Positions 1 through 51,406 of a stretch of 64,000 nucleotides of DNA are shown in pieces (position 1 is the stretch's first letter; each line of letters opens with the position of its first letter). Where the stretch lies: positions 3,448 through 67,447 of the forward strand of contig DATJPY010000103.1 of NCBI GenBank assembly GCA_035506135.1, in the 5' to 3' direction. Origin of the DNA: Myxococcota bacterium. Lineage in GTDB: Bacteria; Myxococcota_A; UBA9160; PR03. The notes below the pieces were generated by a model. That model did no database searches and was not told the DNA's origin. It saw only the letters and a program-made list of their open reading frames with translations. A program made the position numbers and the translations under genes.

Positions 1-1965
1 GCGCTCGATGTCGCACAGAAGGGAAATGCGCCGTCGTCGGTGGTCGAGCGCGTTCGAGCCACGATCGCGTCGATCGACGCGGTGAAGCCGCTCGTCGAGC
101 AGCGGCGAGCGCGACTCCTCGTCCTCGAGGACGGCGTGAGTCGCTCGATGCAGGCGTGCGACGATGCGCTGGGTCGCATCCACGACGCGCGACGCGAGGC
201 GGTCGAGCGCATCTTCAGCGCCCACGAGCCGCCTCTCTGGAAGGCCGGAAATCTCTCGGGCGAGGCGCGCACGGAAGTGTCGCGCGCACGGCTCCTGCTC
301 GGAACGGGCCTCGACATCCTCAGCGTTTATTTCAGCGAGTACCGGGCGGGCGTCGCGCTCTCGGGGCTGCTCGTGCTCGTGCTGATCGGCGTGATGAGGC
401 GGGCGCGCTCCGAGGCGGCGAGCGTGGCAGAGCGCGACGCGTTCTTCGCGTCGGCCGCGCTGGTCTTCGAGACGCCCATCTCTGCTGCGTTTCTGCTCGG
501 CTTCGTGATCTCGCGGCCCCTGCGGCCACACCCGCCCGTGATGCTCCTGCAGCTGAACCTCGCAATCGGGATGGTCGCCGCCGTCGTTCTGCTGCGGCGC
601 TTCCTCGGTCCGGGGCTTCGGCGGGCCGCCTATGGCCTCACCGCTCTCTTCCTGCTGGACCTGACGAGCCAGACACTCGCCACGATCTCGCCGGCGCTCG
701 AGCAGGTGGTGTCGCTGGTCGAGAAGGGCGCGACGGCCGCGCTCCTCGTCGGGGTCGCCGCGCTGCTGCGGGATCCGGCGATCGTCCCCTCGTGGTCCCC
801 TCGGTCCCGCGCCACGACACGGATCGCACTCTATCTCTTCGCGCTCGCCTGTCTGACCGCCGCGGGAGCCGCCATGTTCGGCTATGTCGACTTCGCCGAC
901 TTCCTCGGCGGCGGCGCGCTGTACCTCGTCTATGCCGCCTTCGTGCTGCTCGCCTTCCGGCTTGCGGCCAATGGCCTCGTTGCGATCGCCCTGGTGAAGC
1001 AGCCGCTCGCCCGGCTCCACGCACTGGCGCGTCACCGCACCCTGGTCGAGCGCCGCATCGAGAGCTTGCTCGACCTGCTTGTGGTCGGGCTCTGGGTGTG
1101 GACCGCGCTCTACCGATTCGAGTTGCTCGGGTGGGCGAGCGAGGCGGTCGACCGCACGCTCGGCGCGAGGCTCCACGTCGGCGATCTCGACCTTGCGATC
1201 GGCCGACTGCTCGGCTTCGCCGCCGTCCTGGTCGCCGCCTACCTCGTCACCCGCGTCGTCGTCTTCCTGCTGGAGGAGGACGTCTACTCGCGCATGGAGC
1301 TGCCGCGCGGGGTGCCCTACGCGCTCTCGACCCTCACGCGCTATGCGCTGCTCCTCGCCGGGTTCCTCGTCGCGCTCGGGACGCTCGGCCTCGACCTCAC
1401 CAAGGTCACCGTGCTCGTGAGCGCGTTCGGTATCGGGATCGGGTTCGGCCTCCAGCAGATCATCAGCAACTTCGTGTCTGGACTGATCCTGCTCTTCGAG
1501 CGGCCGGTGCAGGTCGGCGACTCGGTGCAGCTCGGGGACCTCGGCGGCCAGGTCACGCGCATCGGCATCCGCTCGAGCACGGTGCTGACGCCCGAGGGCG
1601 CCGAGGTCATCGTGCCCAACTCGAAGATGATCGAGGACCGCGTCACCAACTGGACGCTCTCGGACCGCCGGCGCCGCGTCGACCTCGAGGTCGGCGTGGA
1701 GTTCGACGCCGACTCGGAGCGGATCCTCGGCCTGCTCGTCGAGGTGGCCCGCCGCGACCCCCGCGTCAGCGCCGACCGCGAGCCCGAGGCCCTCCTCGCG
1801 AAGTTCGGCGAGAAGTCGGCCGAGTTCCACCTGCGGGTCTGGACCAGCGAGCCGAACTGGATGCGGCTCCGCAGCGACCTCGGCGTCGCCGTCCAGCGGG
1901 CGCTGCGCGCGCTGCGCGAGGAATCCGCCGGCGCGGCCGGCGAGGGTGGCTCGATCCAGGCTTGA
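1..1965 (+). CDS. Mechanosensitive ion channel, MscS/MscK-type; 5' end cut by the window edge
   Basis: The frame is open from nt 1, with no stop before the GTG at 40. Several TM helices precede the MscS core LILLFERPVQVGDSVQLGD..GQVTRIGIRSSTV..PNSKMIEDRVTNWT. Stop TGA at 1963-1965. Confidence 0.85.
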   Translation, partial: ALDVAQKGNAPSSVVERVRATIASIDAVKPLVEQRRARLLVLEDGVSRSMQACDDALGRIHDARREAVERIFSAHEPPLWKAGNLSGEARTEVSRARLLLGTGLDILSVYFSEYRAGVALSGLLVLVLIGVMRRARSEAASVAERDAFFASAALVFETPISAAFLLGFVISRPLRPHPPVMLLQLNLAIGMVAAVVLLRRFLGPGLRRAAYGLTALFLLDLTSQTLATISPALEQVVSLVEKGATAALLVGVAALLRDPAIVPSWSPRSRATTRIALYLFALACLTAAGAAMFGYVDFADFLGGGALYLVYAAFVLLAFRLAANGLVAIALVKQPLARLHALARHRTLVERRIESLLDLLVVGLWVWTALYRFELLGWASEAVDRTLGARLHVGDLDLAIGRLLGFAAVLVAAYLVTRVVVFLLEEDVYSRMELPRGVPYALSTLTRYALLLAGFLVALGTLGLDLTKVTVLVSAFGIGIGFGLQQIISNFVSGLILLFERPVQVGDSVQLGDLGGQVTRIGIRSSTVLTPEGAEVIVPNSKMIEDRVTNWTLSDRRRRVDLEVGVEFDADSERILGLLVEVARRDPRVSADREPEALLAKFGEKSAEFHLRVWTSEPNWMRLRSDLGVAVQRALRALREESAGAAGEGGSIQA

Positions 1966-1990
1966 ACCGGCGCCGGGCCTCCGCAATAAT
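1962..1990 (+). promoter_or_regulatory. sigma70-type promoter: TTGAAC, 17 nt spacer, AATAAT
   Basis: TTGAAC at 1962-1967 and AATAAT at 1985-1990 with an exact 17 nt spacer. It lies in a local AT-rich island 56 nt upstream of the ATG at 2046. Confidence 0.5.
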
Positions 1991-2003
1991 GAAACACGTT
2001 TCA
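1990..2003. promoter_or_regulatory. Perfect 14-bp palindrome TGAAACACGTTTCA; candidate TetR-family (KstR/PsrA-class) operator
   Basis: Arms TGAAAC and GTTTCA are separated by a 2 nt spacer. It fits both TnnAACnnGTTnnA and (G/C)AAAC-N2-4-GTTT(G/C). It abuts the -10 element and the expected TSS of the ACAD operon. Confidence 0.55.
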
Positions 2004-2045
2004 ATCTCGAGCGGAGCCCGCCCCCCCCGATGCCCCCTGCGTCCG

Positions 2046-3209
2046 ATGAAACTTGACTTCACGGCCGAGCAGCGCGCGCTCCGCAAGGAGATCCGGAGCT
2101 ACTACCGCGAGCTGCTGACGCCCGAGGTGCGCGCCGCCTTCGACGCCGAGCGCGAGGACATGGGCGGCCCGCTCTACCGCGAGCTGGTCGGCCGCATGGG
2201 GCGCGACGGCTGGCTCGGCATCGGTTGGCCGCGCGAGTGGGGCGGCCAGGGCCGCGGTCCGATCGAGCAGTTCATCTTCTGGGACGAGACCTACCGCGCG
2301 CGCGCGCCGCTGCCCGTGATCATGGTGAACACCATCGGCCCGACCCTGATGCGCTTCGGCACCGAGGCGCAGAAGCGCGAGATCCTTCCGAGGATCCTGC
2401 GCGGTGAGCTGCACTTCGCGATCGGCTACACCGAGCCCGGCGCGGGGACCGACCTCGCCTCGCTCGCCACCCGCGCGGTCGTGGAAGGGGAGCACTGGCG
2501 GATCGACGGCCAGAAGATCTTCACCACCCATGCGCACGACGCCGACTACGTCTGGCTCGCCGCGCGCACCGACCCGGGCGCGCCCAAGCACAAGGGCATC
2601 TCGATCATCCTGGTGCCGACCGACGCCCCGGGCTTCTCGGTGACGCCGATCCGCACCCTCGGCGGGGAGCGCACCAACGCCACCTACTTCGCCGACGTCC
2701 GGGTGCCGCTGGCCAACACCGTCGGCCCCGTGCACGGCGGCTGGACCCTCATCACGGCGCAGCTCAACCACGAGCGCGTGGCGCTCGCCACCCCCGGCCT
2801 CGCCGACCGGCTGCTCGACGAGGTGTGGAGCTACGCCGTCGCGACCGGGGCGATCGGCGAGGCGTGGGTCCAGATCAACCTCGCGCGCGTCTACGCCAAG
2901 CTCGACGCGCTGAAGCTCCTCAACTGGCGCTCGGCGTGGTCGCTCGAGACCGGCAACCCGCATCCGGCCGAGGCGTCGGCGGTGAAGGTGATGGGCAGCG
3001 AGTTCTTCGTCGAGTGCTACCGCCTGCTGCTCGAGATCGCGGGCGCCGCCGGCGTGGTGCTGTCCGGCGAGCCGGGCGCGCTCTTCGGTGGGCTGCTCGA
3101 GCAGGCGTATCGCGGCGCCGTCACGCTCACGTTCGGCGGCGGTGTGAACGAGGTTCAGCGCGACATCATCGCGATGGCGGGGCTCGGGCTGCCCCGGGCG
3201 AGGCGTTAG
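2046..3209 (+). CDS. Acyl-CoA dehydrogenase (FadE-type; candidate catalytic subunit)
   Basis: Internal ATG in the 156..3209 frame. N-terminus MKLDFTAEQRALRKEIR. ACAD motifs GYTEPGAGTDLASL, WRIDGQKIFTT and C-terminal FGGGVNEVQRDIIA, which carries the catalytic Glu context. Confidence 0.9.
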   Translation: MKLDFTAEQRALRKEIRSYYRELLTPEVRAAFDAEREDMGGPLYRELVGRMGRDGWLGIGWPREWGGQGRGPIEQFIFWDETYRARAPLPVIMVNTIGPTLMRFGTEAQKREILPRILRGELHFAIGYTEPGAGTDLASLATRAVVEGEHWRIDGQKIFTTHAHDADYVWLAARTDPGAPKHKGISIILVPTDAPGFSVTPIRTLGGERTNATYFADVRVPLANTVGPVHGGWTLITAQLNHERVALATPGLADRLLDEVWSYAVATGAIGEAWVQINLARVYAKLDALKLLNWRSAWSLETGNPHPAEASAVKVMGSEFFVECYRLLLEIAGAAGVVLSGEPGALFGGLLEQAYRGAVTLTFGGGVNEVQRDIIAMAGLGLPRARR

Positions 3210-4196
3210 ATGGACAAGCGCGAGCTCGAGGCGAAGCTCCGCGCCTTCGTCGGCCAGCCGACGGGTCCCCCGTTTACGGGGCCGGAGCTCGTCAACGAGG
3301 CGATGATCCACCACTGGTGCGACGCGATGGGCGATCGCAACCCCGTGTATCGGGATGCCGACGCGGCGAAGCGGTCTGCGCACGGTGGCGTCGTCGCGCC
3401 GCCCACCATGATGCAGGTCTGGATCATGCGCGGCGTCGAGATGGCGGCGCCGCAGGCCACCTCGACCGACGGCCAGATCCAGCTCGGCCGGCTCCTGGTC
3501 GAGGCGGGCTACCCGTCGGTGGTGGCGACCAACTGCGAGCAGGAGTACGAGCGCTACCTGCGCCCCGGCGACCAGATCGTCGCGACCACCGTGTTCGAGT
3601 CGATCTCGGACGAGAAGACCACGGGGCTCGGGACGGGCTATTTCATCGACACGCGCACGACCTTCCGCGACCAGCACGGCGAGCAGGTCGGGTGGATGAC
3701 GTTCCGGATCCTGCGCTTCAAGCCGAATGCTCCACCGCCGGCTGCCTCTGCCGGCACGGCCGTGCCCGCCAAGCCGCGCCGGCTTCGCCCGCCGCTCGGA
3801 CACGACAACGCGTGGTGGTGGGAGGGCATCGAGAAGGGCGAGCTGCGCATCCAGCGCTGCAAGTCCTGCGGGACGCTCCGCCATCCGCCGCGCCCGATGT
3901 GCGGCCGCTGCCAGTCGATCGAGTGGGACTGGCTCTTGTCGAAGGGCGCCGGCTCCGTCTACAGCTACGTCGTGCTGCACCACCCGCCGATCCCCGGCTA
4001 CGACTTTCCGCTGCCGGTCGCGCTGATCGAGCTCGACGAGGGCACGCGGCTGGTGGCGAACGTCATCGGCTGCAAGCCGGCCGAGGTGCACATCGGCATG
4101 CGCGTGCAGGCGCACATCGAGAGCGCGGACGACGAGCTCTCGCTTCCGTTCTTCCGGCCGGTCGAGGCCGCCCGGCCCGGTCCGGCGGAGAGGTAG
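3210..4196 (+). CDS. Fusion of MaoC-N-type hotdog domain with DUF35 Zn-ribbon/OB-fold domain (ChsH2-like)
   Basis: The ATG follows the previous stop directly. The N-terminal half is hotdog-like (NEAMIHHWCDAMGDRNPVY). The C-terminal half has CKSCG..CGRCQS plus the OB-fold region VALIELDEGTRLVANV..VHIGMRV. Confidence 0.85.
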   Translation: MDKRELEAKLRAFVGQPTGPPFTGPELVNEAMIHHWCDAMGDRNPVYRDADAAKRSAHGGVVAPPTMMQVWIMRGVEMAAPQATSTDGQIQLGRLLVEAGYPSVVATNCEQEYERYLRPGDQIVATTVFESISDEKTTGLGTGYFIDTRTTFRDQHGEQVGWMTFRILRFKPNAPPPAASAGTAVPAKPRRLRPPLGHDNAWWWEGIEKGELRIQRCKSCGTLRHPPRPMCGRCQSIEWDWLLSKGAGSVYSYVVLHHPPIPGYDFPLPVALIELDEGTRLVANVIGCKPAEVHIGMRVQAHIESADDELSLPFFRPVEAARPGPAER

Positions 4197-4198
4197 CG

Positions 4199-5374
4199 AT
4201 GGACTTCGACCTCTCCGAGGAGCAGCGGTCGCTCGGTGAGCTGGCGCGCGGGATCTTCGAGCGCGAGGTGACGAAGGAGCGCCTGCGCGAGCTCGAGGCG
4301 AGCGGCGAGTGCGTCGACGACCGGCTGTGGGCGAAGCTCGCCGAGGCGAACCTGCTCGGCCTCGCGGTGCCCGAGGCGCACGGCGGCATGGGCTTCGGGC
4401 TCCTCGAGCTCTGCGTGCTGCTGCAGGAGGTCGGCCGCGCGCTGGCGCCGGTGCCGGTGCTCCCGGCGCTCGTGCTCGCGGGGCTGCCGCTCGCGCGCTT
4501 CGGAACCGATGCGCAGCGGCGCGCCTGGCTGGCGCCGCTGGCGGCCGGGGAGGCGATGCTGAGTGCCGCGATCGCCGATCCGGCGGGGAGCGTCCGGGCG
4601 CGCCGCGAAGGATCCGGCTGGGTTCTCGACGGCGCGAAGCGCCTCGTCTCCGCCGCGGGCCGCACGCGGCGCATCCTGGTGCCGGCGTCGACGGCGGATG
4701 GCGCGGGCATCTTCCTGCTCGATCCCGGGGCGGCCGGCGTCTCGCTCGAGGGGAGCCGGACGCGGGTACGCGGGCCGCTCTTCGCGCTCCGGCTCGCCGG
4801 CGTGCGCGTCGCCGAGGCCGACCTCCTGGGCGGCGATGCGGCCGGTGGCGAGCGCGCGCTGCGCTGGATCCGGGATTGTGCGCTCGCGGCCGTGGCATCG
4901 ACGCAGGTCGGTGTCTCCGAGCGCGCACTCGAGATCACGGCGGGGCATCTGCGCGAGCGCGTTCAGTTCGGCGCCCCGATCGGCTCCTTCCCGGCCGTGC
5001 AGCAGCGCGCCGCCGACTGCTGGATCGATCTGGCGGCGATGCGCTGGACGGCGTGGCGCGCCGCGTGGCGCATCGCGGAAGGGCTGCCCGCCGGGCGCGA
5101 GACGCTGGTCGCGAAGGTCTGGGCGGCCGAGGGCGGCTCGCGCATCGCGAATGCCGCGCAGCATCTGCACGGAGGCCTGGGCGTGGACGTCGACTATCCG
5201 ATCCACCGCTACTTCCTCTGGTCCAAGTCGCTGGAGCTCGAGCTCGGCGGCGCGGCGCCGCTCCTGGCCGAGCTCGGCCGCGACATGGCGGCGAGCGGTC
5301 CGGCGGAGATCGCCGGGCCCGCGAGCATCCCCGGTGCGCCCGCTGGGGCCAGGAGCGGGGAGGCTCGCGCGTGA
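4199..5374 (+). CDS. Acyl-CoA dehydrogenase family protein (second, beta-type subunit candidate)
   Basis: ATG at 4199, 2 nt after the previous stop. N-terminus MDFDLSEEQRSLGELARGIFE. ACAD fold; the C-terminal region LELELGGAAPLL lacks the usual YEGT-E-type catalytic context. Confidence 0.85.
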   Translation: MDFDLSEEQRSLGELARGIFEREVTKERLRELEASGECVDDRLWAKLAEANLLGLAVPEAHGGMGFGLLELCVLLQEVGRALAPVPVLPALVLAGLPLARFGTDAQRRAWLAPLAAGEAMLSAAIADPAGSVRARREGSGWVLDGAKRLVSAAGRTRRILVPASTADGAGIFLLDPGAAGVSLEGSRTRVRGPLFALRLAGVRVAEADLLGGDAAGGERALRWIRDCALAAVASTQVGVSERALEITAGHLRERVQFGAPIGSFPAVQQRAADCWIDLAAMRWTAWRAAWRIAEGLPAGRETLVAKVWAAEGGSRIANAAQHLHGGLGVDVDYPIHRYFLWSKSLELELGGAAPLLAELGRDMAASGPAEIAGPASIPGAPAGARSGEARA

Positions 5375-5790
5375 GCGTCCGCTTCGAGTCGGTCTCGGTG
5401 GGCGACGCGCTGCCCGAGCTCTCGATCCCCATCACGGCGACGCTGGTGGTCGGCGGCGCGCTCGCGTCGCGCGACTTCACGCCGGTGCACCACGATCGTG
5501 CCGCCGCGCAGGCGCAGGGCATGTCCGACGTCTTCATGAACATCCTGACGACGAACGGGCTGGTCGGTCGCTACGTCACCGATTGGGCGGGTCCCGACGC
5601 GACGCTGCGAAACGTCGCGATCAAGCTCGGCGCTCCGAACCTGCCCGGCGACACCATGAAGATGATGGGAGCCGTCCGCAGCAAGGACGAGCCGTCGGGC
5701 GAGGTGGTGGTCGAGATCACCGGCCGGAACGGCTGGGGCAACCACGTGACCGGCACGGTGCGGCTCGCGCTGCCGAGGAGCGATCGATGA
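5371..5790 (+). CDS. MaoC-like (R)-hydratase hotdog protein (ChsH1-like)
   Basis: The GTG start overlaps the previous TGA (GTGA at 5371-5374). Contains SRDFTPVHHDRAAAQAQGMSDVFMNILTTNGLVGRYVTDW. Confidence 0.85.
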   Translation: MSVRFESVSVGDALPELSIPITATLVVGGALASRDFTPVHHDRAAAQAQGMSDVFMNILTTNGLVGRYVTDWAGPDATLRNVAIKLGAPNLPGDTMKMMGAVRSKDEPSGEVVVEITGRNGWGNHVTGTVRLALPRSDR

Positions 5791-6959
5791 CGAGCCCGCT
5801 CAAGGACCGCGCCGCGATCGTCGGTATCGGGCAGACCGAGTTCTCCAAGAGCTCCGGCCGCTCGGAGCTGCAGCTCGCGTGCGAGGCCGTGCGCGCGGCG
5901 CTCGACGACGCCGGGCTGCGGCCCTCCGACGTCGACGGCATGACGTCCTTCACGATGGACACCAGCGACGAGATCGAGGTGGCGCGCGCGGTCGGCATCG
6001 GCGATCTCACCTTCTACAGCCGCGTGCCGCACGGGGGCGGCGCGGCGATCGGCGTGATCCAGCAGGCGGTGATGGCGGTGGCGACGGGCGTGGCCGAGAC
6101 CGTGGTCGTGTACCGCGCCTTCAACGAGCGCTCCGGGCGCCGCTACTCGATCGGCGTCGCCGACACGCTCGTCACCGCCGACGCGATCCACTGGAGCTGG
6201 TACATGCCCTTCGGGCTGCTCACGCCCGCCTCCTGGGTCGCGATGTACACGCAGCGCTACATGCACGAGTACGGCTGCAAGAGCACCGATCTGGCCCAAG
6301 TGGCGGTGTCGACCCGCAAGCACGCGGTCAACAACCCGGCGGCGTTCTTCTACGGCAAGCCGCTCACCGTGGAGGAGCACCAGGCCTCGCGCCTGATCGT
6401 CGACCCGCTGCGTCTCTTCGACTGCTGCCAGGAGAGCGACGGCGGCTGCGCGCAGGTGGTGACGACGGTCGAGCGTGCGCGCGACCTGCGCGCGCGCGCC
6501 GCCGTGGTGCGCGGAGTCGGCCAGGCCGCCGGGGCCGAGCAGGAGAACATGACGAGCTTCTACCGGCCGAGCATCTCGCACCTCCCGGAGATGGACCTGG
6601 TCGCCAAGCAGGTCTACGCGATGTCCGGGCTCCGCCCGTCCGACGTCGACGCGGCGATCATCTACGACGCCTTCACCCCGGTCGTGATGTGGCAGCTCGA
6701 GTCGTTCGGCTTCTGCGGTCGCGGCGAGGCCAAGGACTTCGTCGCCGACGGCAACCTCGAGGTCGGCGGGCGGCTCCCCTGCAACACGCACGGGGGCCAG
6801 CTCTCGGAGGCCTACATCCACGGCATGAACGGGGTGAACGAGGGCGTCCGCCTGATCCGGGGCACCTCGCTCAATCAGCCCGCGAAGAACGACCACGTGC
6901 TGGTGACCGCCGGCGTCGGCGTCCCCACCAGCGGCATGATCCTTGGAAAGCTCGACTAG
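5787..6959 (+). CDS. SCP-x/Ltp-type thiolase-fold protein lacking the nucleophile Cys (Ltp2-like candidate aldol-lyase)
   Basis: ATGA overlap at 5787-5790. Contains AAIVGIGQTEFSKSSGRSELQL and a C-terminal NTHGGQLSEAYIHGMNG. The expected nucleophile segment reads GGGAAIGVIQQA, with Ile where the paralog at 13008 has Cys. Confidence 0.85.
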   Translation: MTSPLKDRAAIVGIGQTEFSKSSGRSELQLACEAVRAALDDAGLRPSDVDGMTSFTMDTSDEIEVARAVGIGDLTFYSRVPHGGGAAIGVIQQAVMAVATGVAETVVVYRAFNERSGRRYSIGVADTLVTADAIHWSWYMPFGLLTPASWVAMYTQRYMHEYGCKSTDLAQVAVSTRKHAVNNPAAFFYGKPLTVEEHQASRLIVDPLRLFDCCQESDGGCAQVVTTVERARDLRARAAVVRGVGQAAGAEQENMTSFYRPSISHLPEMDLVAKQVYAMSGLRPSDVDAAIIYDAFTPVVMWQLESFGFCGRGEAKDFVADGNLEVGGRLPCNTHGGQLSEAYIHGMNGVNEGVRLIRGTSLNQPAKNDHVLVTAGVGVPTSGMILGKLD

Positions 6960-8150
<1,191 letters not shown>

Positions 8151-8213
8151 TGATCTCGCGCCGGCCGGAGGAACCGGCCGCCCAACACGGTCAAGGTGAG
8201 TAGGAGGTGCTCG

Positions 8214-9125
8214 ATGGTGCTCGACGGGAAGGTGGCGGTGGTCACGGGCGGGGCGACGGGGCTCGGGCGCTGCCACGCGCTCGAGCTGGCGCGGCAGGGA
8301 GCGCGCGTCGTGGTCAACGACCTCGGCGCGAAGGCCGACGGCAGCGGCCGCGACGAGAGCGCCGCGCGCGCGGTCTGCGACGAGATCGAGTCGCTCGGCG
8401 GCGAGGCGGTGCCGCACTTCGGCGACGCCGCGGATTGGAACACCTCGAAGGGGATGTTCGAGACCGCGGTCGAGCACTTCGGCGACGTCAACGTCGTGGT
8501 GTGCAACGCCGGCTTCATCCGCGACGCGATCCTCTTCAACATGACCGAGAAGGACTTCGACGACGTCGTGCGCGTGCACCTGAAGGGGCACTTCTGCACG
8601 ATCCGCCACGCGACGGCGTACTGGCGCGAGCGCGCGAAGGCGGGCGGCGCCGTCTACGGCCGGCTCATCGCGACGTCGTCGGAGTCGGCCTTCTTCGCCC
8701 CGCCCGGGCAGCCCAACTACTCGGCGGCCAAGGCCGGCATCATCGCGATCACGATGGGCGCGGCGCAGCTCATGCAGAAGTACGGCGTCACGGCCAACGT
8801 CATCATGCCCCGCGCGCGCACGCGCATGAACGAGGCGGGGCCGCTCGCGGCGCTCTTCAAGAAGCCGGAGGCCGGCTTCGACACCTTCGCGCCGGAGAAC
8901 GTGTCGCCGCTGGTCGGCTGGCTGGCGTCGCCGCTCGCGGCGCGCGTCTCGGGCCACGTGTTCGTGGTGTGGGCGAAGGACGTGACCGTCGTCTCGCGCC
9001 CGACGCTCGAGCAGAAGTTCCAGAGCGACGCGCGCTGGACGGTCGAGTCGCTGCAGACCGCGCTCGGACCCCACTTCGAGAAGCTCGAGCCGGTGAAGGA
9101 CGGATACACGGTTCCGGCGATGTGA
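8214..9125 (+). CDS. Short-chain dehydrogenase, MFE-2/Hsd4A-type 3-hydroxyacyl-CoA dehydrogenase
   Basis: ATG at 8214 lies 7 nt after TAGGAGG; the ORF track starts at GTG 8196. Contains GKVAVVTGGATGLGRCHALELARQGARVVVNDLG, NAGFIRD and NYSAAKAG. Confidence 0.88.
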   Translation: MVLDGKVAVVTGGATGLGRCHALELARQGARVVVNDLGAKADGSGRDESAARAVCDEIESLGGEAVPHFGDAADWNTSKGMFETAVEHFGDVNVVVCNAGFIRDAILFNMTEKDFDDVVRVHLKGHFCTIRHATAYWRERAKAGGAVYGRLIATSSESAFFAPPGQPNYSAAKAGIIAITMGAAQLMQKYGVTANVIMPRARTRMNEAGPLAALFKKPEAGFDTFAPENVSPLVGWLASPLAARVSGHVFVVWAKDVTVVSRPTLEQKFQSDARWTVESLQTALGPHFEKLEPVKDGYTVPAM

Positions 9126-9128
9126 TCC

Positions 9129-9149
9129 CCGCGCCGCGATGAGGCGCGG
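9129..9149 (+). terminator. Hairpin after the SDR gene: CCGCGCC, 7 nt loop, GGCGCGG
   Basis: Perfect 7-bp GC stem 4 nt after the stop. No clear U-tract. Confidence 0.3.
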
Positions 9150-9203
9150 TCGGCGCATCCGCTCTATGCTCGCGGTGTCCCGCGCGCCCTCGAGGAGCAC
9201 GCC

Positions 9204-9866
9204 GTGAGCTCCGCCCATCGAGCCTACGTTCCCGCCGCCGGTCGCGACTTCCTGCTTCCGTTCTATGACCCGCTCTGCCGCCTGATCGGCACCGCCGCGC
9301 TGCACGACGAGCTGATCGGGGAGGCCCACCTCGAGCCGGGGCAGCGCGTCCTCGACGTGGGCTGCGGCACGGGCACGCTCGCGGTGCGGCTGCGCGCCGC
9401 ACATCCGGATGTCGAGGTCGTCGGGCTCGATCCGGACCCGAAGGCGCTCGCGATCGCGGGGCGCAAGGCCGAGCGGGCCGGCGTCGCGGTGCGCTTCGAG
9501 CAGGGCTACGGCGATGCCCTCCCCTTCGGCGACGCCGCCTTTGATCGCGCCACCTCGTCGCTCATGTTCCATCACCTCGAACTCGCCACCCGGCGCGGGA
9601 TGCTGCGCGAGATCCTGCGCGTGCTGCGCCCGGGCGGGTCGATGCACCTGCTCGACTTCGGCCACGGCGGAGAGCGGCGATCGGATGGACTCCTCGCCCG
9701 CCTCCTCCACAGCGTCGAGCACCTGCGCGAGAACAGCGACGAGCGGGTGGCGGGGATGCTCGCCGAGGCCGGCTTCGAGGGCGTGGAGCGCGTGGCCGAC
9801 CGGCGCACGCTCTTCGGGCGGGTCGCCTTCCACCGCGCGCGCAGGCCCGGCGAGTCGGGCGCCTAG
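9204..9866 (+). CDS. Class I SAM-dependent methyltransferase
   Basis: Motif I VLDVGCGTGTLAV; post-I and motif II region LRPGGSMHLLDF. Confidence 0.85.
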   Translation: MSSAHRAYVPAAGRDFLLPFYDPLCRLIGTAALHDELIGEAHLEPGQRVLDVGCGTGTLAVRLRAAHPDVEVVGLDPDPKALAIAGRKAERAGVAVRFEQGYGDALPFGDAAFDRATSSLMFHHLELATRRGMLREILRVLRPGGSMHLLDFGHGGERRSDGLLARLLHSVEHLRENSDERVAGMLAEAGFEGVERVADRRTLFGRVAFHRARRPGESGA

Positions 9867-10477
9867 CGCTCGGAGCCGGTGACGCTGAGGTCGAGGTCCC
9901 GCAGCAGGCCGTCGCGCAGATCGTAGATCCAGCCGTGGACGACGAGCGGCCGGCCGAGCCGCCACGCGGCCTGGACGACGTCGGTCTCGCACACGGAGCG
10001 GACCTGCGCAGCGACGTTGAGCTCGCAGAGGCGCCGCCACTGGGCCTGCTGGTCGGGCAGTCGATCCAGCTCCGCCTGGTGCGCCTTGCGCACCCGGCGG
10101 ATGTGCTCGATCCAGTCGTCGAGCGGCGGCTTCACGGGGCCGCCGAACGCCGCCTGCACGCCGCCGCAGCCGTAGTGCCCGCACACGATCACGTGCGAGA
10201 CGCCGAGCGTCTCGACGGCGTACTGCAGCACCGAGCGCGCGTTCGGATCCTCGGGCGGTACGACGTTGCCGACGTTGCGATGCACGAACAGCTCGCCCGG
10301 CGCCATTCCGACGATCTGGTTGGCGGGGACCCGGCTGTCGGCGCAGCCGATCCAGAGATAGGCGGGCGACTGGATCTCGCAGAGTCGGGCGAAGAAGGCC
10401 GGGTCCTCGGCGAGGCACTTCGCCGCCCAGGCCCGATTGTTGGCGAACAGGTGGGGGAGCTGCCGCATCGCCCACAC
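9863..10477 (-). CDS. Beta-class carbonic anhydrase
   Basis: Contains CADSRVPANQI, FVHRNVGNVV and VCGHYGCGGV. Its stop shares the CTAG at 9863-9866 with the convergent methyltransferase. Confidence 0.9.
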   Translation of the reverse strand: MWAMRQLPHLFANNRAWAAKCLAEDPAFFARLCEIQSPAYLWIGCADSRVPANQIVGMAPGELFVHRNVGNVVPPEDPNARSVLQYAVETLGVSHVIVCGHYGCGGVQAAFGGPVKPPLDDWIEHIRRVRKAHQAELDRLPDQQAQWRRLCELNVAAQVRSVCETDVVQAAWRLGRPLVVHGWIYDLRDGLLRDLDLSVTGSER

Positions 10478-10523
10478 GGTACCCCATCGCGCGCGCCCGC
10501 GGCCCTCGATGCGCGCCCGGGTC

Positions 10524-11237
10524 TCAGGGGATCCAGCCCTGCTGCTCGAAGCGCGAGCGGAGCTGCTCGGCGATCTCCTCGGCGGTCTGCTCGCCGCGCC
10601 CCTCGATCGTGCTCCGACCGGTCACCTCGCCGCCGACCTTCACCGCGCTCGTGACGATGAGGCCGATCGGATTCGCCGTCGCCACGGCGACCGCGGCCGG
10701 TACTGCCGCGCCGGGTCCCTTGCTGCCGGTGGCCTCCACCGTTCCGGAGCCGAGCTTGCGCAGCCCCTGGCGAGTCATCTGATAGCCCTCGACCACGGTC
10801 GTGAGCTTCGAGCTGCCGGCGCCGAAGCCGATCGTCATGCGCTTCACCGCACTGCCCTCGTCGATCGACGCGAAGTAGCCGCGGATCACGATGTCGTCGA
10901 GCTGCGGCGTCGTGCCGCGCGTGACCCGCTGCGCGGGAAGCCCCATGGCGCGGATCTTCTCCGCCAGGTCGCGCGCGACCGCCGCGCCGAGCGCGCGGCC
11001 CGCCTCGATCTGTTCGGCGGTGGGCTGCTGGCTCGGGTCGTAGCGGCCCGCGAGCGCGGAGTCGGCGGGAACGTCGGCCGGGCTCGCGCCGAAGTCGTAC
11101 ACCAGGATGCGATCGGGACGCGGGAGCTTCTGGTTGCCGATGCGGCTCTCGCGCTGCGTCACCGACGTGGAGGCGCAGGCCGTGAGGACGATCGCGGCGA
11201 GCAGCACGCCCGCCGCCCTTCCAGGCGCTCGCATCAT
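10524..11237 (-). CDS. Lipoprotein, DUF4410-like
   Basis: Starts at the internal ATG ATG (MMRAPGRAAGVLLAAIVLTAC) after a G-rich SD. Lipobox LTAC. The family assignment is from memory only. Confidence 0.6.
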   Translation of the reverse strand: MMRAPGRAAGVLLAAIVLTACASTSVTQRESRIGNQKLPRPDRILVYDFGASPADVPADSALAGRYDPSQQPTAEQIEAGRALGAAVARDLAEKIRAMGLPAQRVTRGTTPQLDDIVIRGYFASIDEGSAVKRMTIGFGAGSSKLTTVVEGYQMTRQGLRKLGSGTVEATGSKGPGAAVPAAVAVATANPIGLIVTSAVKVGGEVTGRSTIEGRGEQTAEEIAEQLRSRFEQQGWIP

Positions 11238-11266
11238 CCCACCCCCCGGCGAGAGGGCGGCGCCCG

Positions 11267-12973
<1,707 letters not shown>

Positions 12974-20758: not shown

Positions 20759-21760
20759 ATGGGTGTTCCCGCGATCGTCACGGCGGGGGATCGGCGGGCG
20801 GCGAAGGCGGTGTACGGCGAGAGCAAGCCGTACCTCGAGCTCGGCGGCCGCCCGCTCGTCGCCCACGTCGTCGCGGCGCTGCAGCGCGTGCCCGAGGTCT
20901 CGTCGGTCTGGGTGGTGGGGAATGCCGAGCGCCTTGCGCCCCTGCTCGGCGACCCGGCGATGAAGGACGAGCTACGCAAGCCGCTGCACGTCGTGCCGCA
21001 GTTCCGGAACCTCTACGAGAACGGATGGGAGACCTATCGCAGGCTGCTGCCCGGGGCGGGGCCGGAAGGTCGCGACCCGGGGCCGGAGGACGCGGACACC
21101 GCGGTGCTCTATGCGTCGGCGGACCTCCCGTTCGCGACGCCGGAGGAGATCTCGGCCTTCGCGCGCCAGAGCCTGGCGCTCGACTGCGACTACGCGCTCG
21201 GCCTGTGCACGGAGGCGTCGATGCGCGACTTCTATCCGGAGGCGCCCGGCGAGCCGGGGATCCGCATGGCGTACTTCAACCTCCGCGAGGGGCGCTACCG
21301 GCAGAGCAACCTCCATTGGATCAAGCCCGCCCGCATCGGCAACCGCCAATACATCGAGGAGATGTACGAGCACCGCTACCAGCGCCAGATCGGCCAGATG
21401 ATCGCGCTCGGCTGGCGGCTGCTGCGGCTCCAGGAAGGGGGCCTCGCGGTGCTCTACTACTACGGGCTGATGCACCTCGCCGCGCTGGCCGATCGCTCGG
21501 GTCTGGCGCGCCTCTCCGACGCGATCCGCGCGCGGATCCCGATGTCGCGCGTCGAGGCGGGCTGCAGCGCGCTCCTGCGCGGGCGCTTCCGCTTCGTCGT
21601 GACGGAGGTCGGCGGCTCCGCCGTCGACATCGACAACGAGCACGACTACGACGCCGCGCGCGCTCGCTTCGACGTCTGGCGCGATCGCCAGCGGGAGCGC
21701 GCGGCGGCGCTGCTCGGTACGCCGGCGCTGGAGCGCGGCGGCAGCCGGGAGACCGCATGA
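20759..21760 (+). CDS. Nucleotidyltransferase-family protein (MobA-like NTP-transferase fold)
   Basis: The N-terminus PAIVTAGDRRAAKAVYGESKPYLELGGRPLVAHVV is typical of the NTP_transf_3-type G-loop. Confidence 0.6.
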   Translation: MGVPAIVTAGDRRAAKAVYGESKPYLELGGRPLVAHVVAALQRVPEVSSVWVVGNAERLAPLLGDPAMKDELRKPLHVVPQFRNLYENGWETYRRLLPGAGPEGRDPGPEDADTAVLYASADLPFATPEEISAFARQSLALDCDYALGLCTEASMRDFYPEAPGEPGIRMAYFNLREGRYRQSNLHWIKPARIGNRQYIEEMYEHRYQRQIGQMIALGWRLLRLQEGGLAVLYYYGLMHLAALADRSGLARLSDAIRARIPMSRVEAGCSALLRGRFRFVVTEVGGSAVDIDNEHDYDAARARFDVWRDRQRERAAALLGTPALERGGSRETA

Positions 21761-22749
21761 GCGCCGGCGACCCGGTGCGTGCGGCGCGCCGCAGCGCGGC
21801 GTTGTTCGAGCTCCCGGAGCGCGGCTTGATCGACGTGCGCGGCTCCGATCGCGTCCGCTTCCTGCAGGGTCAGCTCACCGCCGACGTCGCTGCGCTCGAC
21901 GCCGCGGGCCCGCGCTCGGGCTGCTACGCGCTCGCGCTGTCGCCGCAGGGCCGGATCGTCGTCGACCTGCACGTGATCGCGCGGCCCGATTCGATCTGGC
22001 TCGAGACCGACGCGGAGAGCGTTCCGGCGGCCATGGCGCGGCTCGCGAAGTACGTGATCGCCGACGACGTCGAGCTCGTCGACACCGGTCGCGAGCCGTC
22101 GCGCTTCGGGATCGAAGGGCCCCGCGCCGGCGACCTGCTGGAGGCGGCGGCCGGGGTGTGCCCTGCGCTCGCGCCCGAGAGCGCCGCGCCGCTGCGGATC
22201 GCGGGTGCGGACGTGCTGGCCGCAGCGTACGGCTGGAGCGGCGAGCGCGCGTTCCAGCTCTTCGTCCCGCGCGCGCAGGCATCGGCCGTCGGAGCGGCGC
22301 TGCGCGCGGCGGCCGCGGCGTGCGGCGCCGTGGAGGCGGGACCCGAGGTGCTCGAGGTGCTGCGGGTCGAGGCGGGCGTGCCTCGGGCCGGCCGCGAGCT
22401 CGGGCCCGACGTGCTGCCGGCGGAGGCGGGTGTGCTCGCGCGCGCCGTCTCCTTCACCAAGGGTTGCTACACCGGCCAGGAGGTGGTCGCGCGGATGGAG
22501 TCGCGCGGGCGGGTCGCCCACCGTCTCGTCGGCCTCGCCTTCGAGGAGCTGCCCGAGCTCGGCGCAGCACTCTCGGCGGGCGGCACGCGCGTGGGTGCGG
22601 TGACCAGCGCGGCGCAGTCGCCCACCGCAGGATCGATCGGCCTCGGCTACGTGCGAGCCGGCCACGAGGAGCCGGGGACCCGGCTCGAGGTCGGCGGCGC
22701 GGGCGCGCGCGTCGCGGCGCTCCCGTTCGTCTCGGTCCGCCGCGAGTGA
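21757..22749 (+). CDS. ygfZ: YgfZ/GcvT-like folate-binding protein
   Basis: ATGA overlap at 21757-21760. Contains GLIDVRGSDRVRFLQGQLT and the signature KGCYTGQE. Confidence 0.85.
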   Translation: MSAGDPVRAARRSAALFELPERGLIDVRGSDRVRFLQGQLTADVAALDAAGPRSGCYALALSPQGRIVVDLHVIARPDSIWLETDAESVPAAMARLAKYVIADDVELVDTGREPSRFGIEGPRAGDLLEAAAGVCPALAPESAAPLRIAGADVLAAAYGWSGERAFQLFVPRAQASAVGAALRAAAAACGAVEAGPEVLEVLRVEAGVPRAGRELGPDVLPAEAGVLARAVSFTKGCYTGQEVVARMESRGRVAHRLVGLAFEELPELGAALSAGGTRVGAVTSAAQSPTAGSIGLGYVRAGHEEPGTRLEVGGAGARVAALPFVSVRRE

Positions 22750-23507
22750 CCGTCGGGCGCTTCCCCGCGCGGCGCGGCTGGCTCGCCGTGTTCGCCAAGG
22801 CCCCGCGCTCGGGAGAGGTCAAGACGCGGCTCTGTCCGCCCTTCTCGCACGAGCAGGCGGCGGCGCTGTATCGGTGTCTCCTGGCCGACGGCCTGGAAGA
22901 GTCCGCCCACGCAGCGCGGGCGCTCGGACTCGAGCCGGTCCTCGCCGTCGATCCGCCCGAGGCCGTTCCCGAGCTGGCAGCGCTCGCCCCTCCCGGCTTC
23001 CGCGCCCTGCCCCAGCGCGGGGCCGACCTCGGCGCCCGCATGGCGCACGTTGCCCGCCAGGCCGCGGCGTCGGGGGCGCCTCTCGCCCTGCTGCGGGGAA
23101 GCGACAGCCCGACTCTCGCGCGCGCCGAGCTCGGCCACTGCGTGTGCGAGCTCGGGCGCACCGACCTGGTGGTGGGGCCCGATCGCGACGGCGGCTACCA
23201 CCTGCTCGGCCTGGGACCGCGCGCGCTCTCGCGCGCAGGCGATCTGTTCGATCATCCGATGAGCACACCGACGGTGCTGCGCGACACCGTCGCGCGCGCC
23301 GAACGCGCGGGGCTCTCGGTCGGCCGCCTCGAGACGGGGTTCGACCTCGACTCGTTCGAGGACCTCCGCTGGCTCGCGGACGCCCGACACCGGGATGGGT
23401 CGATCCCGTGCCAGAGGACGCTCGGGTTCCTGGACGAACAGCGTTTGTGGCCGGCCCGATCCGCACTGGATGCGCGTCGCTTCTCGGACCCCGATTCGGG
23501 TACTTAG
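22746..23507 (+). CDS. DUF2064-family (glycosyltransferase-like) protein
   Basis: GTGA overlap at 22746-22749. Contains the N-terminal VFAKAPRSGEVKTRLCPP and GPDRDGGYHLLGL. Confidence 0.75.
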   Translation: MTVGRFPARRGWLAVFAKAPRSGEVKTRLCPPFSHEQAAALYRCLLADGLEESAHAARALGLEPVLAVDPPEAVPELAALAPPGFRALPQRGADLGARMAHVARQAAASGAPLALLRGSDSPTLARAELGHCVCELGRTDLVVGPDRDGGYHLLGLGPRALSRAGDLFDHPMSTPTVLRDTVARAERAGLSVGRLETGFDLDSFEDLRWLADARHRDGSIPCQRTLGFLDEQRLWPARSALDARRFSDPDSGT

Positions 23508-23527
23508 CCCCGCATTCGCGCCCCCCT

Positions 23528-23543
23528 AGGCCCACCTGTTGCA
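23528..23543 (+). promoter_or_regulatory. Weak candidate sigma54 promoter: AGGCCC, N5, TTGCA
   Basis: GG-N10-GC spacing is satisfied and the -12 element TTGCA is good, but the -24 element is imperfect. It lies about 390 nt upstream of the porin-1 ATG. Confidence 0.25.
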
Positions 23544-23620
23544 CGACGAGCACAGCTAAGCTAGAGAGACCACGCGCACGCAGAATATGCGTAAAGTGCG
23601 CCTGTGCGGCTCCCGAATAG

Positions 23621-23660
23621 GGGCCTCGATCTTCGTGGGCCTCGATCTTCGTGGGCCTCG
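23621..23660. repeat. Exact 16-bp tandem duplication GGGCCTCGATCTTCGT, two full copies plus a partial third
   Basis: Copies at 23621-23636 and 23637-23652, and a partial GGGCCTCG at 23653-23660. It sits in the 422-nt intergenic region upstream of porin 1. Confidence 0.9.
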
Positions 23661-23929
23661 GCCCCTCGGGCCTTACCCGAGTCGGTCGTCGAGGGGTCGG
23701 AGTTCTCGGTGGAGGGGCTTCGCACGGTGCCCGGCATGTTACGCGGGATGGGTGGTGCCCGCGGCTTCGTCGCGGTCGGCCAGCCAATCCGGTGTCGGTC
23801 TGGAGGGAGCGGGCTCGTCAGGGGGGTGAGTTCGCAGCGCGCGAGATCGATGAGCGTGTCGATTTCGCCACATCCAGGTTTCTGACTGGATCCAGGCCGT
23901 CTCGAGGCACGCGACAAGGAGGGGTACGG

Positions 23930-25405
23930 ATGCGATCGCGGTGGATCGTCGCGCTTTCGACTCTCGGCATCATCGGATTTGCTCTGTCCGGCCTCGCGCC
24001 GTCGGCCCGAGCGGACGACGACGCGACCCAGGCCCAGCTCAAGGCGATGCAGGACCGCATGCAGTCGATGGAGGACCAGCTCCAGGCTGCGAACAAGCGG
24101 GTGGACGATCAGCAGGATCTGATCCAGCGCTCGGGTCTCTCGGAGACGCGCGGGTCGAGCTCGGGCCTGCCGGGCTTCCTGGGGTCGATCGACATCGGCG
24201 GCTGGGTGTCGGCCAGCTACTTCTACAACGTCAACGACCCGAACGACCACCAGAACCCGGACGGCGGGCTCAAGAACACCAACATCGGCTTCTCGGGGCA
24301 GAACCCGCCGCCGAATAGCTTCGGCACGACTCAGTACAATCCCAATTCGCCGCAGTTCTACCCGACGACCCCGGACCACAACAGCTTCTCGCTCGATCAG
24401 CTCTGGTTCGAGATCGAGCGCAAGGTGAGCGAGGAGAACCGCGCCGGCTTCCGCGCGGACATCCTGTACGGCACGGCGGCGGGGCTGCTGCCGAACAGCT
24501 CGTTCAACGGCAATCGCGCGAGCTTCGACTCGACGTCGTCGTTCTACGTGCAGCAGGCCTACGTCCAGTACCTCGCACCGATCGGCAGCGGCATCACCGT
24601 GAAGGCCGGGAAGTTCGGCGACCTGCTCGGCGTGGAGCGCGCGGGGACGATCTACAACTGGAACATCACGCGCGGCACGATCTGGACGCTGTTCGAGCCG
24701 ATCAACCACGTTGGCGTGTCCGTCGGCGGGCCGGTCGGCGACTCGGGCTTCGACTGGACACTGGCCGGCGTCAACGGCTTCAACCCGGACTCGCCCGACA
24801 TCAACGACGGCAAGTCGGTGACCGGCCACCTCGGCTGGCACAACGATCAGCTCACCGTCGCCGTGAACGGCATCTGGGGCCCCGAGAAGTTCGGGAACGA
24901 CGGGAGCCAGAACGGCGTCGCCAACGGGCTCATCAAGTGGACGCCCAACGACCGCTTCGGGATGTACCTGAACGGCGACTACGCCTGGGTGCAGGGCAAG
25001 TCGCAGGCCGCCTGGGGCCTCTCGCTGGCGGGCCGCTACGGGATCACGGACACCACCGGGATCGCGCTGCGCGGCGAGTACGCGCAGGACGTGCGGGGCT
25101 TCTTCGGCTTCACCGGCTGCGGCAGCGACTTCGGCAACCCCGCCTTCAGCGGGCAAGCGAACCTCTGCGGCAACACCGGGATCCAGACCTACGGCATCAC
25201 GCTGACGGTCGACCATCTGCTGACGGACCAGCTCATGATCCGCGGCGAGGGCCGCTACGACTGGATCGGGAAGGACAACGGCAAGCAGGACGAGTTCTTC
25301 GAGAACAACCGCTACAACCTGGCGGGCAGCAAGAGCATGCCGAACGATCAGCTCGTGTTCGGCGTCGAGCTCGTCTACAACTTCAACAAGTTCGGTGGCA
25401 AGTAG
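23930..25405 (+). CDS. Outer-membrane beta-barrel porin with N-terminal coiled coil (paralog 1)
   Basis: AAGGAGGGG SD. Signal peptide ..APSARA. Heptad segment DDDATQAQLKAMQDRMQSMEDQLQAANKRVDDQQDLI. Amphipathic beta strands with aromatic girdles (GWVSASYFYNV, FYVQQAYVQYLAP, VFGVELVYNF). Confidence 0.8.
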   Translation: MRSRWIVALSTLGIIGFALSGLAPSARADDDATQAQLKAMQDRMQSMEDQLQAANKRVDDQQDLIQRSGLSETRGSSSGLPGFLGSIDIGGWVSASYFYNVNDPNDHQNPDGGLKNTNIGFSGQNPPPNSFGTTQYNPNSPQFYPTTPDHNSFSLDQLWFEIERKVSEENRAGFRADILYGTAAGLLPNSSFNGNRASFDSTSSFYVQQAYVQYLAPIGSGITVKAGKFGDLLGVERAGTIYNWNITRGTIWTLFEPINHVGVSVGGPVGDSGFDWTLAGVNGFNPDSPDINDGKSVTGHLGWHNDQLTVAVNGIWGPEKFGNDGSQNGVANGLIKWTPNDRFGMYLNGDYAWVQGKSQAAWGLSLAGRYGITDTTGIALRGEYAQDVRGFFGFTGCGSDFGNPAFSGQANLCGNTGIQTYGITLTVDHLLTDQLMIRGEGRYDWIGKDNGKQDEFFENNRYNLAGSKSMPNDQLVFGVELVYNFNKFGGK

Positions 25406-25650: not shown

Positions 25651-25807
25651 GCCGATACGCCCGGCGCCGGCTGCCCGGCGGGTCGATTGCAAAAAAGTGT
25701 TCGCAAGGGCTCTCCCGAAGCGCCTTGCGCTCCGTTAAGTTACGGGTCCGCGCGTTGAGGGGACGCGGTTCGAATTTCGCAGGATGATGCGAGAAGGAGG
25801 GGTTGAG

Positions 25808-39772: not shown

Positions 39773-39893
39773 ACGCGCGTCGCGCGCGATTCTCTCCGCA
39801 ATCTTCGGGACGTGCGGGCGAGAGCGCAGACTCTTCTTGGTGTAGCCCTATCTGGTACCGGCAAAAAACCGAGTTCACGTTGCCGACTTCTTG

Positions 39894-39921
39894 TTGACAC
39901 CCAATCAGACGCGTGTAATAC
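39894..39921 (+). promoter_or_regulatory. sigma70-type promoter: TTGACA, 16 nt spacer, TAATAC
   Basis: Consensus -35 at 39894-39899 and -10 at 39916-39921, inside an AT-richer patch. It implies a leader of about 115 nt before the iclR ATG. Confidence 0.5.
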
Positions 39922-39959
39922 AGGGGCGCCACCGACGAGGAGGGGCCCCGTCGCGGCAT

Positions 39960-39986
39960 CTTCTTCCATCGACCTTCTTCCACGAC
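39960..39986. repeat. Adjacent direct repeat CTTCTTCCA(T)CGAC, two copies, in the iclR leader
   Basis: CTTCTTCCATCGAC at 39960-39973 and CTTCTTCCACGAC at 39974-39986. Related CTTCTTG elements occur at about 39832 and 39888. Confidence 0.6.
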
Positions 39987-40042
39987 CACGGGTTTCGAGA
40001 CGGAGCGCGTCCGGGTCCGCGGGTCCTGCAAAGGGCGTGTCG

Positions 40043-45947: not shown

Positions 45948-45949
45948 CC

Positions 45950-49899: not shown

Positions 49900-51318
<1,419 letters not shown>

Positions 51319-51406
51319 CGGGCGCGGGGAGAGTAACACCCGCCGACCGCGACTTCGCAACGGCGCGCAGCGGTGCGAGCGATCGCGCTCGCGCGGGTGG
51401 ATTCTC

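Follow-up and report, generated by a model that had tools for sequence, protein, structure and literature searches.

The question raised by the beginning of the 64,000-nucleotide stretch of contig DATJPY010000103.1 from a Myxococcota bacterium (the whole of which we refer to as the window) is what kind of regulator acts on the short inverted repeat in front of an operon that starts with an acyl-CoA dehydrogenase (ACAD) gene. A sequence-only reading of the window had proposed that this repeat is a TetR-class operator, of the KstR or PsrA type, lying over the promoter of a beta-oxidation operon, and that its repressor is a lipid or steroid sensor. As far as KstR is concerned, the proposal is borne out by conservation of the repeat at orthologous promoters, by its recurrence in the promoters of genes for KstR-like TetRs, and by the best PDB and NCBIfam matches of the proteins that these genes encode. 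Taking these observations together, we consider it highly probable that positions 1990–2003 are the operator of a KstR-like TetR repressor which is encoded elsewhere in the genome, and which controls a sterol/steroid side-chain operon.

The sequence elements on which the proposal had been built are all present where they had been placed. A −35-like hexamer, TTGAAC (1962–1967, plus strand), is separated by a 17-nt spacer (1968–1984) from a −10-like hexamer, AATAAT (1985–1990, plus strand), both being visible in the sequence and recovered in a promoter scan, and the last T of the latter is at the same time the first T of the inverted repeat TGAAACACGTTTCA (1990–2003), such that the putative operator overlaps the last base of the predicted promoter of the ChsE4-like ACAD operon. 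The intergenic sequence 1966–2045, ...gcTTGAACcggcgccgggcctccgcAATAATGAAACACGTTTCAatctcgagcggagcccgccccccccgatgccccctgcgtccgATG, then leaves a gap of 42 nt between the repeat and the ACAD start codon (ATG, 2046), while the TGA stop (1963–1965) of the upstream gene, which encodes an MscS-like channel, lies inside the −35 hexamer. The repeat had been described as a perfect palindrome, which needs correction: its two 6-nt arms, TGAAAC and GTTTCA, are perfect, but the central AC is not self-complementary, an arrangement that is usual for KstR boxes. Likewise, calling the promoter near-consensus was generous, in that it agrees with the consensus at 9 of 12 positions (4/6 in TTGAAC and 5/6 in AATAAT), yet it is the sole sigma-70-like match on either strand of positions 1–12000, where 0.3 would be expected. 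The description of this region as the only AT-rich patch is essentially right, as 1978–2007 has the lowest GC content of any 30-mer (40%) in a window of 72% GC, albeit tied with one other. From the −10 hexamer, transcription would be predicted to start at about position 1997, at the centre of the box.

The site satisfies the 14-bp core of the KstR box, TnnAACnnGTTnnA, and is the single match in the window to the strict form of that core, T..AAC..GTT..A; there is no further strict box in the 64 kb, and the six matches with one mismatch all fall in coding or unrelated sequence. Similarly, the pattern TGAAACNNGTTTCA with up to two mismatches is matched once, compared with 0.16 expected from shuffled sequences. 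Such statistics from one window are weak, and the matter is settled instead by the conservation data, for which we assembled 79 species-level genome loci with ACAD orthologues at 52–77% identity. The closest of these relatives (up to 77% identity) are metagenome-assembled genomes (MAGs) labelled Deltaproteobacteria, Myxococcota or Myxococcales, and the glutaminyl-tRNA synthetase (GlnRS) encoded next to the operon is 79% identical to that of a Deltaproteobacteria bacterium and 72% to that of Myxococcales/Myxococcota.

Of the 79 loci, 42 have a strict box (44 sites in all) no more than 150 nt before the ACAD start, corresponding to a density of 3.7 boxes per kb upstream of ACAD versus 0.048 per kb in the remaining 1.28 Mb, an enrichment of about 78-fold; the boxes found elsewhere are mostly of the TAGAAC or TGAAAC type, and precede other genes. 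Among the half-sites, TAGAAC occurs 49 times, TGAAAC 22 times, TGGAAC 12 times and TGTAAC 5 times, so that the window, with TGAAAC on both arms, carries the second most frequent form. The distance from the start of the box to the start codon has a median of about 50 nt, and in many loci a −10-like CATAAT, CATAGT or CAAGAT stands directly 5′ of the box. We then aligned the window with four loci chosen by ACAD identity, namely L097 (92%), L095 (88%), and L006 and L007 (76% each). The sole conserved block consists of TTG, which is invariant in this five-way alignment, 17–18 nt, and C[AC]ATAA(T)-TG[AG]AACACGTTTCAAT, with a −35/−10 spacing of 17 nt in L006 and L007 as well. Outside this block, the intergenic sequence has diverged, as has the 3′ end of the preceding gene, whereas the box is retained at the orthologous promoters; the pattern is a textbook example of a phylogenetic footprint, here of promoter and operator together. 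Two of the loci, L023 and L025, have no KstR box, and carry another palindrome, TTAAACGA(T/C)CGTTTGT, about 60–80 nt before the ACAD start and after a TATTA-like element; another regulator may have taken control of the operon here, with this palindrome as its operator.

The relatives also indicate which regulator goes with this box, as KstR-like TetR genes are found within 10 kb of the operon in approximately 19 of the 79 loci, and immediately upstream of the ACAD gene in L022, L029 and L030. These were located by tblastn with a KstR probe that served only to find candidates, which were then checked against PDB and NCBIfam. For two of the linked TetRs, the best PDB matches are M. tuberculosis KstR (3mnl, 5cw8 and 5aqc), with E-values of 2e-19 and 6e-17, and the protein from L030 aligns to KstR over nearly its full length. 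Structures of the fatty-acid regulator FadR match over part of the protein only, at about 1e-7, and there are no PsrA structures among the PDB matches listed. The top NCBIfam model of the linked TetRs is NF033703 (cholesterol catabolism transcriptional regulator KstR), which is matched nearly end to end, and having KstR as best solved structure is accompanied by the Pfam architecture TetR_N plus TetR_C_20. Their DNA-binding domains are 47–58% identical to that of KstR, and a profile built from 13 of them retrieves 2721 relatives at E ≤ 1e-20.

In these related genomes, the box is moreover found at the promoter of the regulator gene itself, from which autoregulation would follow. The 14-mer of the window or its reverse complement, TGAAACGTGTTTCA, directly precedes KstR-like TetR genes in a series of loci (L045, L047, L073, L083, L087–L094 and L099), usually as a tandem pair of boxes with a period of 22 nt from start to start. 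When JGI metagenomes were scanned with this tandem DNA pattern alone, 24 loci were retrieved, of which 23 have a correctly oriented KstR-like TetR gene that starts about 10–70 nt downstream of the pattern, the exception being a locus whose box lies at the very end of its contig. As the search from TetR to box and the search from pattern to TetR give the same answer, the link between box and regulator holds in both directions. We note that a spacing of exactly 22 nt, or about two helical turns, is seen in L045 (17933/17955), L047 (15357/15379), L083 (16341/16363), L087–L094 and L100–L123, and that target promoters such as that of the window usually have a single box, which suggests cooperative or tighter autoregulation at the tandem sites. 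We also note that in two unrelated contigs the KstR-like TetR gene is directly preceded, on the same strand, by a MarR-family gene (L087, 106–585; L091, 7455–7919), whose product may act as an additional regulator of the cluster.

What this promoter would drive is a tightly packed set of plus-strand genes, which we defined by frame analysis of the GC content at third codon positions (GC3), translation, Pfam and public gene calls. The first gene (2046–3209) encodes an alpha-type ACAD subunit resembling ChsE4/FadE26, by Pfam, gene call and a best PDB match to 4x28 (E 7e-131), which we take to be the M. tuberculosis ChsE4–ChsE5 complex; the start at 2046 is confirmed by the independent gene calls for L001–L005, five contigs with an identical ACAD. 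It is followed by a ChsH2-like hydratase subunit (3210–4196) with a FAS1-type hot-dog, a zinc ribbon and a DUF35 OB fold (Pfam; PDB 6ok1_B, 4w78 and 4wnb), by a second, beta-type and ChsE5-like ACAD in which Pfam shows no middle domain (4199–5374; GC3 frame, translation, and gene call with Pfam), and by a ChsH1-like MaoC hydratase subunit (5371–5790; Pfam, translation, gene call). The next gene (5787–6959; gene call) encodes an Ltp2-like retro-aldolase of thiolase fold (Thiolase_C_1), which matches 6ok1_A at E 2e-167, chain A of that structure being the Ltp2 partner of ChsH2(DUF35). A FadA5-like steroid 3-ketoacyl-CoA thiolase (6972–8150; Pfam) scores 618 bits against NCBIfam NF005889, where the cut-off is 515, and a short-chain dehydrogenase/reductase (SDR) of 303 amino acids that resembles 3-hydroxyacyl-CoA/3-oxoacyl reductases (8214–9125; Pfam, gene call) scores 343 bits against PRK07791, below the cut-off of 373. 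The SDR gene is probably the last catabolic gene of the operon. The membership of the methyltransferase gene that comes next in our gene analysis (9204–9866) is uncertain.

A two-subunit ACAD pair, a ChsH1/ChsH2 hydratase that includes DUF35, an aldolase of the Ltp2 kind and a thiolase of the steroid type are united in a single operon, and because of the matches to solved structures and a thiolase above the NF005889 cut-off, we assign it to the steroid side-chain type, with a steroid-CoA thioester as the putative substrate. The sequence-only reading had spoken of a beta-oxidation operon; the operon is indeed catabolic, but this wording understates the homologues of ChsE4/E5, ChsH1/H2, Ltp2 and FadA5 in it, which on sequence grounds mark it as a steroid side-chain module and not a generic fatty-acid operon. 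A second Ltp-type thiolase gene (Thiolase_C_1; 13008 to about 14190, minus strand) lies beyond the GlnRS gene and is not preceded by a KstR box, and its counterpart in L095 is accompanied by a luciferase-like monooxygenase.

The system that this locus resembles most closely is the KstR (Rv3574) regulon of Mycobacterium and Rhodococcus, where the consensus is TnnAACnnGTTnnA, and where purified KstR binds, as a dimer, to 29-bp probes with such boxes and represses its targets (Kendall 2007, PMC1995591). Both share the 14-bp architecture, and the probe for the Rv3545c/Rv3546 intergenic region carries TGAAACGTGTTCTA, with the same TGAAAC half-site as in the window (PMC1995591). In both cases the operator overlaps the −10 region of the promoter, the regulator gene has boxes of its own (here in the relatives), and the targets are homologous, with ChsE4/E5-, ChsH1/H2-, Ltp2- and FadA5-like proteins in the window and CYP125-, FadD- and EchA-like proteins in related loci. 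The position of the operator is nevertheless not identical, as it lies at and downstream of the −10 element here, but upstream of it and partly overlapping at the mycobacterial kstR promoter (PMC1995591). Further differences are that the regulator promoters of the present lineage have their boxes in tandem at a distance of 22 nt, with a preference for the TGAAAC half-site, that neither the regulator nor ring-degradation genes are seen in the window, and that the host is an uncultured diderm of the Myxococcota/'Deltaproteobacteria' and not an actinobacterium. Genes for outer-membrane beta-barrel porins, CsgG and sigma-54 activators are found in and beside the window. Such genes indicate a diderm, non-actinobacterial host.

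At the level of the enzymes, the same set is formed by the M. tuberculosis side-chain genes (fadE26–fadE27, that is ChsE4–ChsE5; chsH1, chsH2 and ltp2; fadA5), together with Thermomonospora curvata ChsH1–ChsH2–Ltp2 (4x28, 4w78, 6ok1). In contrast to the M. tuberculosis set, the ACAD and hydratase subunits are interleaved in the window (ACAD-alpha, ChsH2, ACAD-beta, ChsH1, Ltp2, thiolase, SDR), the operon lacks cyp125, and a ChsE4/E5-like ACAD pair, of the first cycle, is joined to a hydratase and aldolase of the last cycle.

An obvious competitor to a KstR-type operator is one for a fatty-acid-responsive TetR of the PsrA or FadR type in front of ordinary fatty-acid beta-oxidation genes. PsrA of Pseudomonas, too, is a TetR-family repressor with acyl ligands that acts on a GAAAC...GTTTC inverted repeat over the promoter, the operon of the window does encode ACADs, hydratases and thiolases, and the site, taken alone, fits the loose PsrA consensus C/GAAAC-N2-4-GTTTG/C (PMC13104628), as had been pointed out. 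That fit is confined to the string in the window, however: the consensus is satisfied on both halves by none of the 44 orthologous sites, most of which carry a GAAC half-site, and they do not behave as a set of PsrA operators. The characterised Pseudomonas sites that a review describes for PsrA have a 4-nt spacer (PMC13104628), the regulators linked to operon and box are closest to KstR with only the partial FadR similarity described above, and the enzymes are of steroid side-chain types and not FadBA/FadE. We consequently give this explanation little credence.

We give still less to the idea that the repeat acts in the RNA, whether as a leader hairpin or as a terminator or roadblock to read-through from the MscS-like gene. 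The segment 1975–2050 folds somewhat better than its shuffles (−22.5 kcal mol–1, z −2.3), and the channel gene and the operon have no terminator between them, but the box alone gives a 5-bp A/U-rich stem with no T-run after it, and a start about 7 nt after the −10 hexamer would leave half of the box untranscribed. What is conserved, furthermore, is the identity of the DNA half-sites (TAGAAC, TGAAAC, TGGAAC), which vary independently of each other and without compensatory changes, and the same box precedes unrelated genes as well as TetR genes in either orientation. Least probable of all is a chance palindrome without regulatory role in an AT-rich promoter patch. It is true that the window holds one copy, and that 16% of shuffled 64-kb sequences have at least one match with up to two mismatches; the enrichment upstream of the orthologues, the invariance of the box amid diverged flanks, and the TetR genes at 23 of the 24 loci found by pattern alone effectively refute a chance origin.

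A KstR-like repressor remains our preferred reading, and several observations have to be weighed against it. Most concern the regulator itself, which is seen neither in the window, where Pfam scans of about 50 GC3-supported open reading frames yield no TetR, nor in the 8 kb before it (L001) or the 10 kb after it (L085), and tblastn of the window with 18 KstR-like proteins gives nothing better than E 0.04. The only transcription-factor-type proteins found by these scans are an IclR regulator (39773–40825) and an HD-domain response regulator. The regulators in the relatives, in turn, score 103–115 bits against NF033703, compared with an equivalog cut-off of 280, and because of these scores we call them KstR-like and not KstR orthologues or equivalogs; their ligand-binding domains are 20–26% identical to that of KstR. 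One box in 64 kb means that no local regulon is visible, steroid ring-degradation genes are not seen anywhere in the window, and both the promoter and the transcription start are predictions.

Part of this weight is removed by a complete MAG chromosome, CP070734.1, in which the ACAD operon has the box TAGAACGTGTTTCA 24 nt before its start (L015), and a KstR-like gene, with the box TGAAACGTGTTCTA 11 nt before its own start, lies about 220 kb away. In view of this distance, the missing local regulator does not count against the model, and the earlier expectation that the regulator is not encoded in the window stands. The source being a metagenome contig, our search for the regulator covered the window plus its 8–10 kb flanks. 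The contigs with an identical ACAD come from ENA assemblies ERZ272565xx/6600 and JGI sample 3300032829; the regulators P0211, P0125 and P0237 are from samples other than that of the window, and among the contigs retrieved from metagenomes by the tandem pattern there is none from samples 3300032829 or 3300032782. The presence of such a regulator in the genome of the window is therefore best put as an expectation drawn from its relatives.

Taking these points into account, a dimeric KstR-like TetR bound at 1990–2003 would occupy the −10/+1 region, and would exclude RNA polymerase, or prevent formation of the open complex, at the single promoter 1962–1990. Repression would then extend over a seven- or eight-gene operon, from 2046 to about 9125 or 9866. 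Because no terminator intervenes, the bound repressor could also stop read-through from the channel gene. Induction would follow from release of the repressor upon binding of the CoA thioester of an early pathway intermediate, by analogy with actinobacterial KstR, whose effector is 3-oxocholest-4-en-26-oyl-CoA (PMC8700777). A sterol-derived CoA thioester may thus be the inducer, but the analogy is weakened by the divergent ligand domain. The domain identities as a whole would fit a retained operator and possibly a changed effector.

KstR has been treated as an actinobacterial regulator (PMC1995591, PMC8700777), and is among the very few regulators of steroid pathways known (PMC8700777), while a 2016 genomic survey of steroid degraders makes no mention of Deltaproteobacteria or Myxococcota (PMC4810484). 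Our literature search found nothing relevant on KstR or steroid degradation in Myxococcota/Deltaproteobacteria, although an earlier description elsewhere is possible. Judged from sequence comparison, the present data extend a KstR-type sterol regulon, a system which itself is already known from mycobacteria, into uncultured Myxococcota-like bacteria. For the window itself the gain is modest, in that a repressor site is recognised and the annotation of its operon sharpened. Beyond it, the combination of box and TetR provides a ready sequence signature for mapping sterol-catabolic regulons in metagenomes, and the result suggests that sterols are turned over in a group whose members include sterol producers as well as predators.

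The genes that follow the box in other non-actinobacterial loci give an impression of how far such a regulon might reach. One of them encodes a cytochrome P450 of the CYP125 family, with E 7e-161 to CYP125MRCA and about 1e-99 to steroid C26-monooxygenases, the gene being divergent from that of an enoyl-CoA hydratase, and others encode FadD-like acyl-CoA ligases, small DUF35 proteins, a luciferase-like monooxygenase, an aldehyde dehydrogenase and further ACADs. In L036, the box precedes a gene (about 260–1720) whose product combines an SCP2 sterol-transfer domain and a 3-beta-hydroxysteroid dehydrogenase/epimerase domain in one polypeptide; for an enzyme that starts the oxidation of sterols, such a fusion would be unusual. 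In L091, the order MarR, KstR-like TetR, ChsH2, MaoC, Ltp2, thiolase, SDR, with the ACAD pair divergent, amounts to the gene set of the window with the regulator attached. This gene content parallels that of the mycobacterial KstR regulon. It is tempting, if still tentative, to suppose that uncultured Myxococcota-like bacteria possess a complete and widespread KstR-like regulon, which would comprise the CYP125-like C26-monooxygenase, FadD-like ligases, ChsE/ChsH/Ltp2, the FadA5-like thiolase and the SCP2/3-beta-hydroxysteroid dehydrogenase fusion, with the same DNA specificity as in actinobacteria and maybe another sterol-derived CoA thioester being sensed. If true, sterol side chains would be catabolised in a lineage for which we found no report of steroid degradation in the literature.

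Upstream of the operon, the window opens with the 3′ part of the MscS-like mechanosensitive channel gene (1–1965, plus strand; Pfam), which begins before the window and is an 810-aa gene in L001; the synteny of channel gene and operon extends to L095 and L097. The two are not separated by any predicted terminator, and over positions 1–12000 there are no intrinsic-terminator-like sites on either strand, compared with 2.3 expected from shuffled sequences, such that Rho-independent terminators may be rare in this organism.

The 5′ leader (2004–2045, plus strand) is C-rich, with no obvious Shine–Dalgarno sequence by the ATG. Its run of C at 2021–2028 has eight residues in the window and in L003, and seven in L001, L002, L004 and L005, all with the identical ACAD, a difference that might reflect either true heterogeneity within the population or a mistake in assembly. 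In the C8 form, translation from an ATG within the operator (1989) would run in frame into the ACAD gene and lengthen it by 19 codons, whereas in the C7 form the frame from this ATG stops at a TGA that overlaps the ACAD ATG. We rejected ATG 1989 as the ACAD start, as it is in frame in the C8 variants only (window and L003) and out of frame in the four other contigs. The leader of the window also contains a short upstream open reading frame (uORF) at 2030–2056, MPPASDET*, with its ATG at 2030; a conserved GGAG precedes the uORF ATG by 11–13 nt. The more closely related L097 (92%) and L095 (88%) have a uORF of 6–7 codons that ends in ATGA over the ACAD start codon, an overlap which suggests translational coupling in these two loci; the uORF is missing in L006 and L007.

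Elsewhere in the window, three high-GC regions (43879–46891, 21760–23600 and 49988–52190), whose best open reading frames are without a Pfam match and show poor codon-position GC contrast, yield no confident gene calls. The porin genes include a tandem paralogous pair of OmpL-like beta-barrel type (BBP2; 23621–25405 and 25739–27280), which share identical short stretches near their 3′ ends, such as TTCAACAAGTTCGG at 25382 and 27257.

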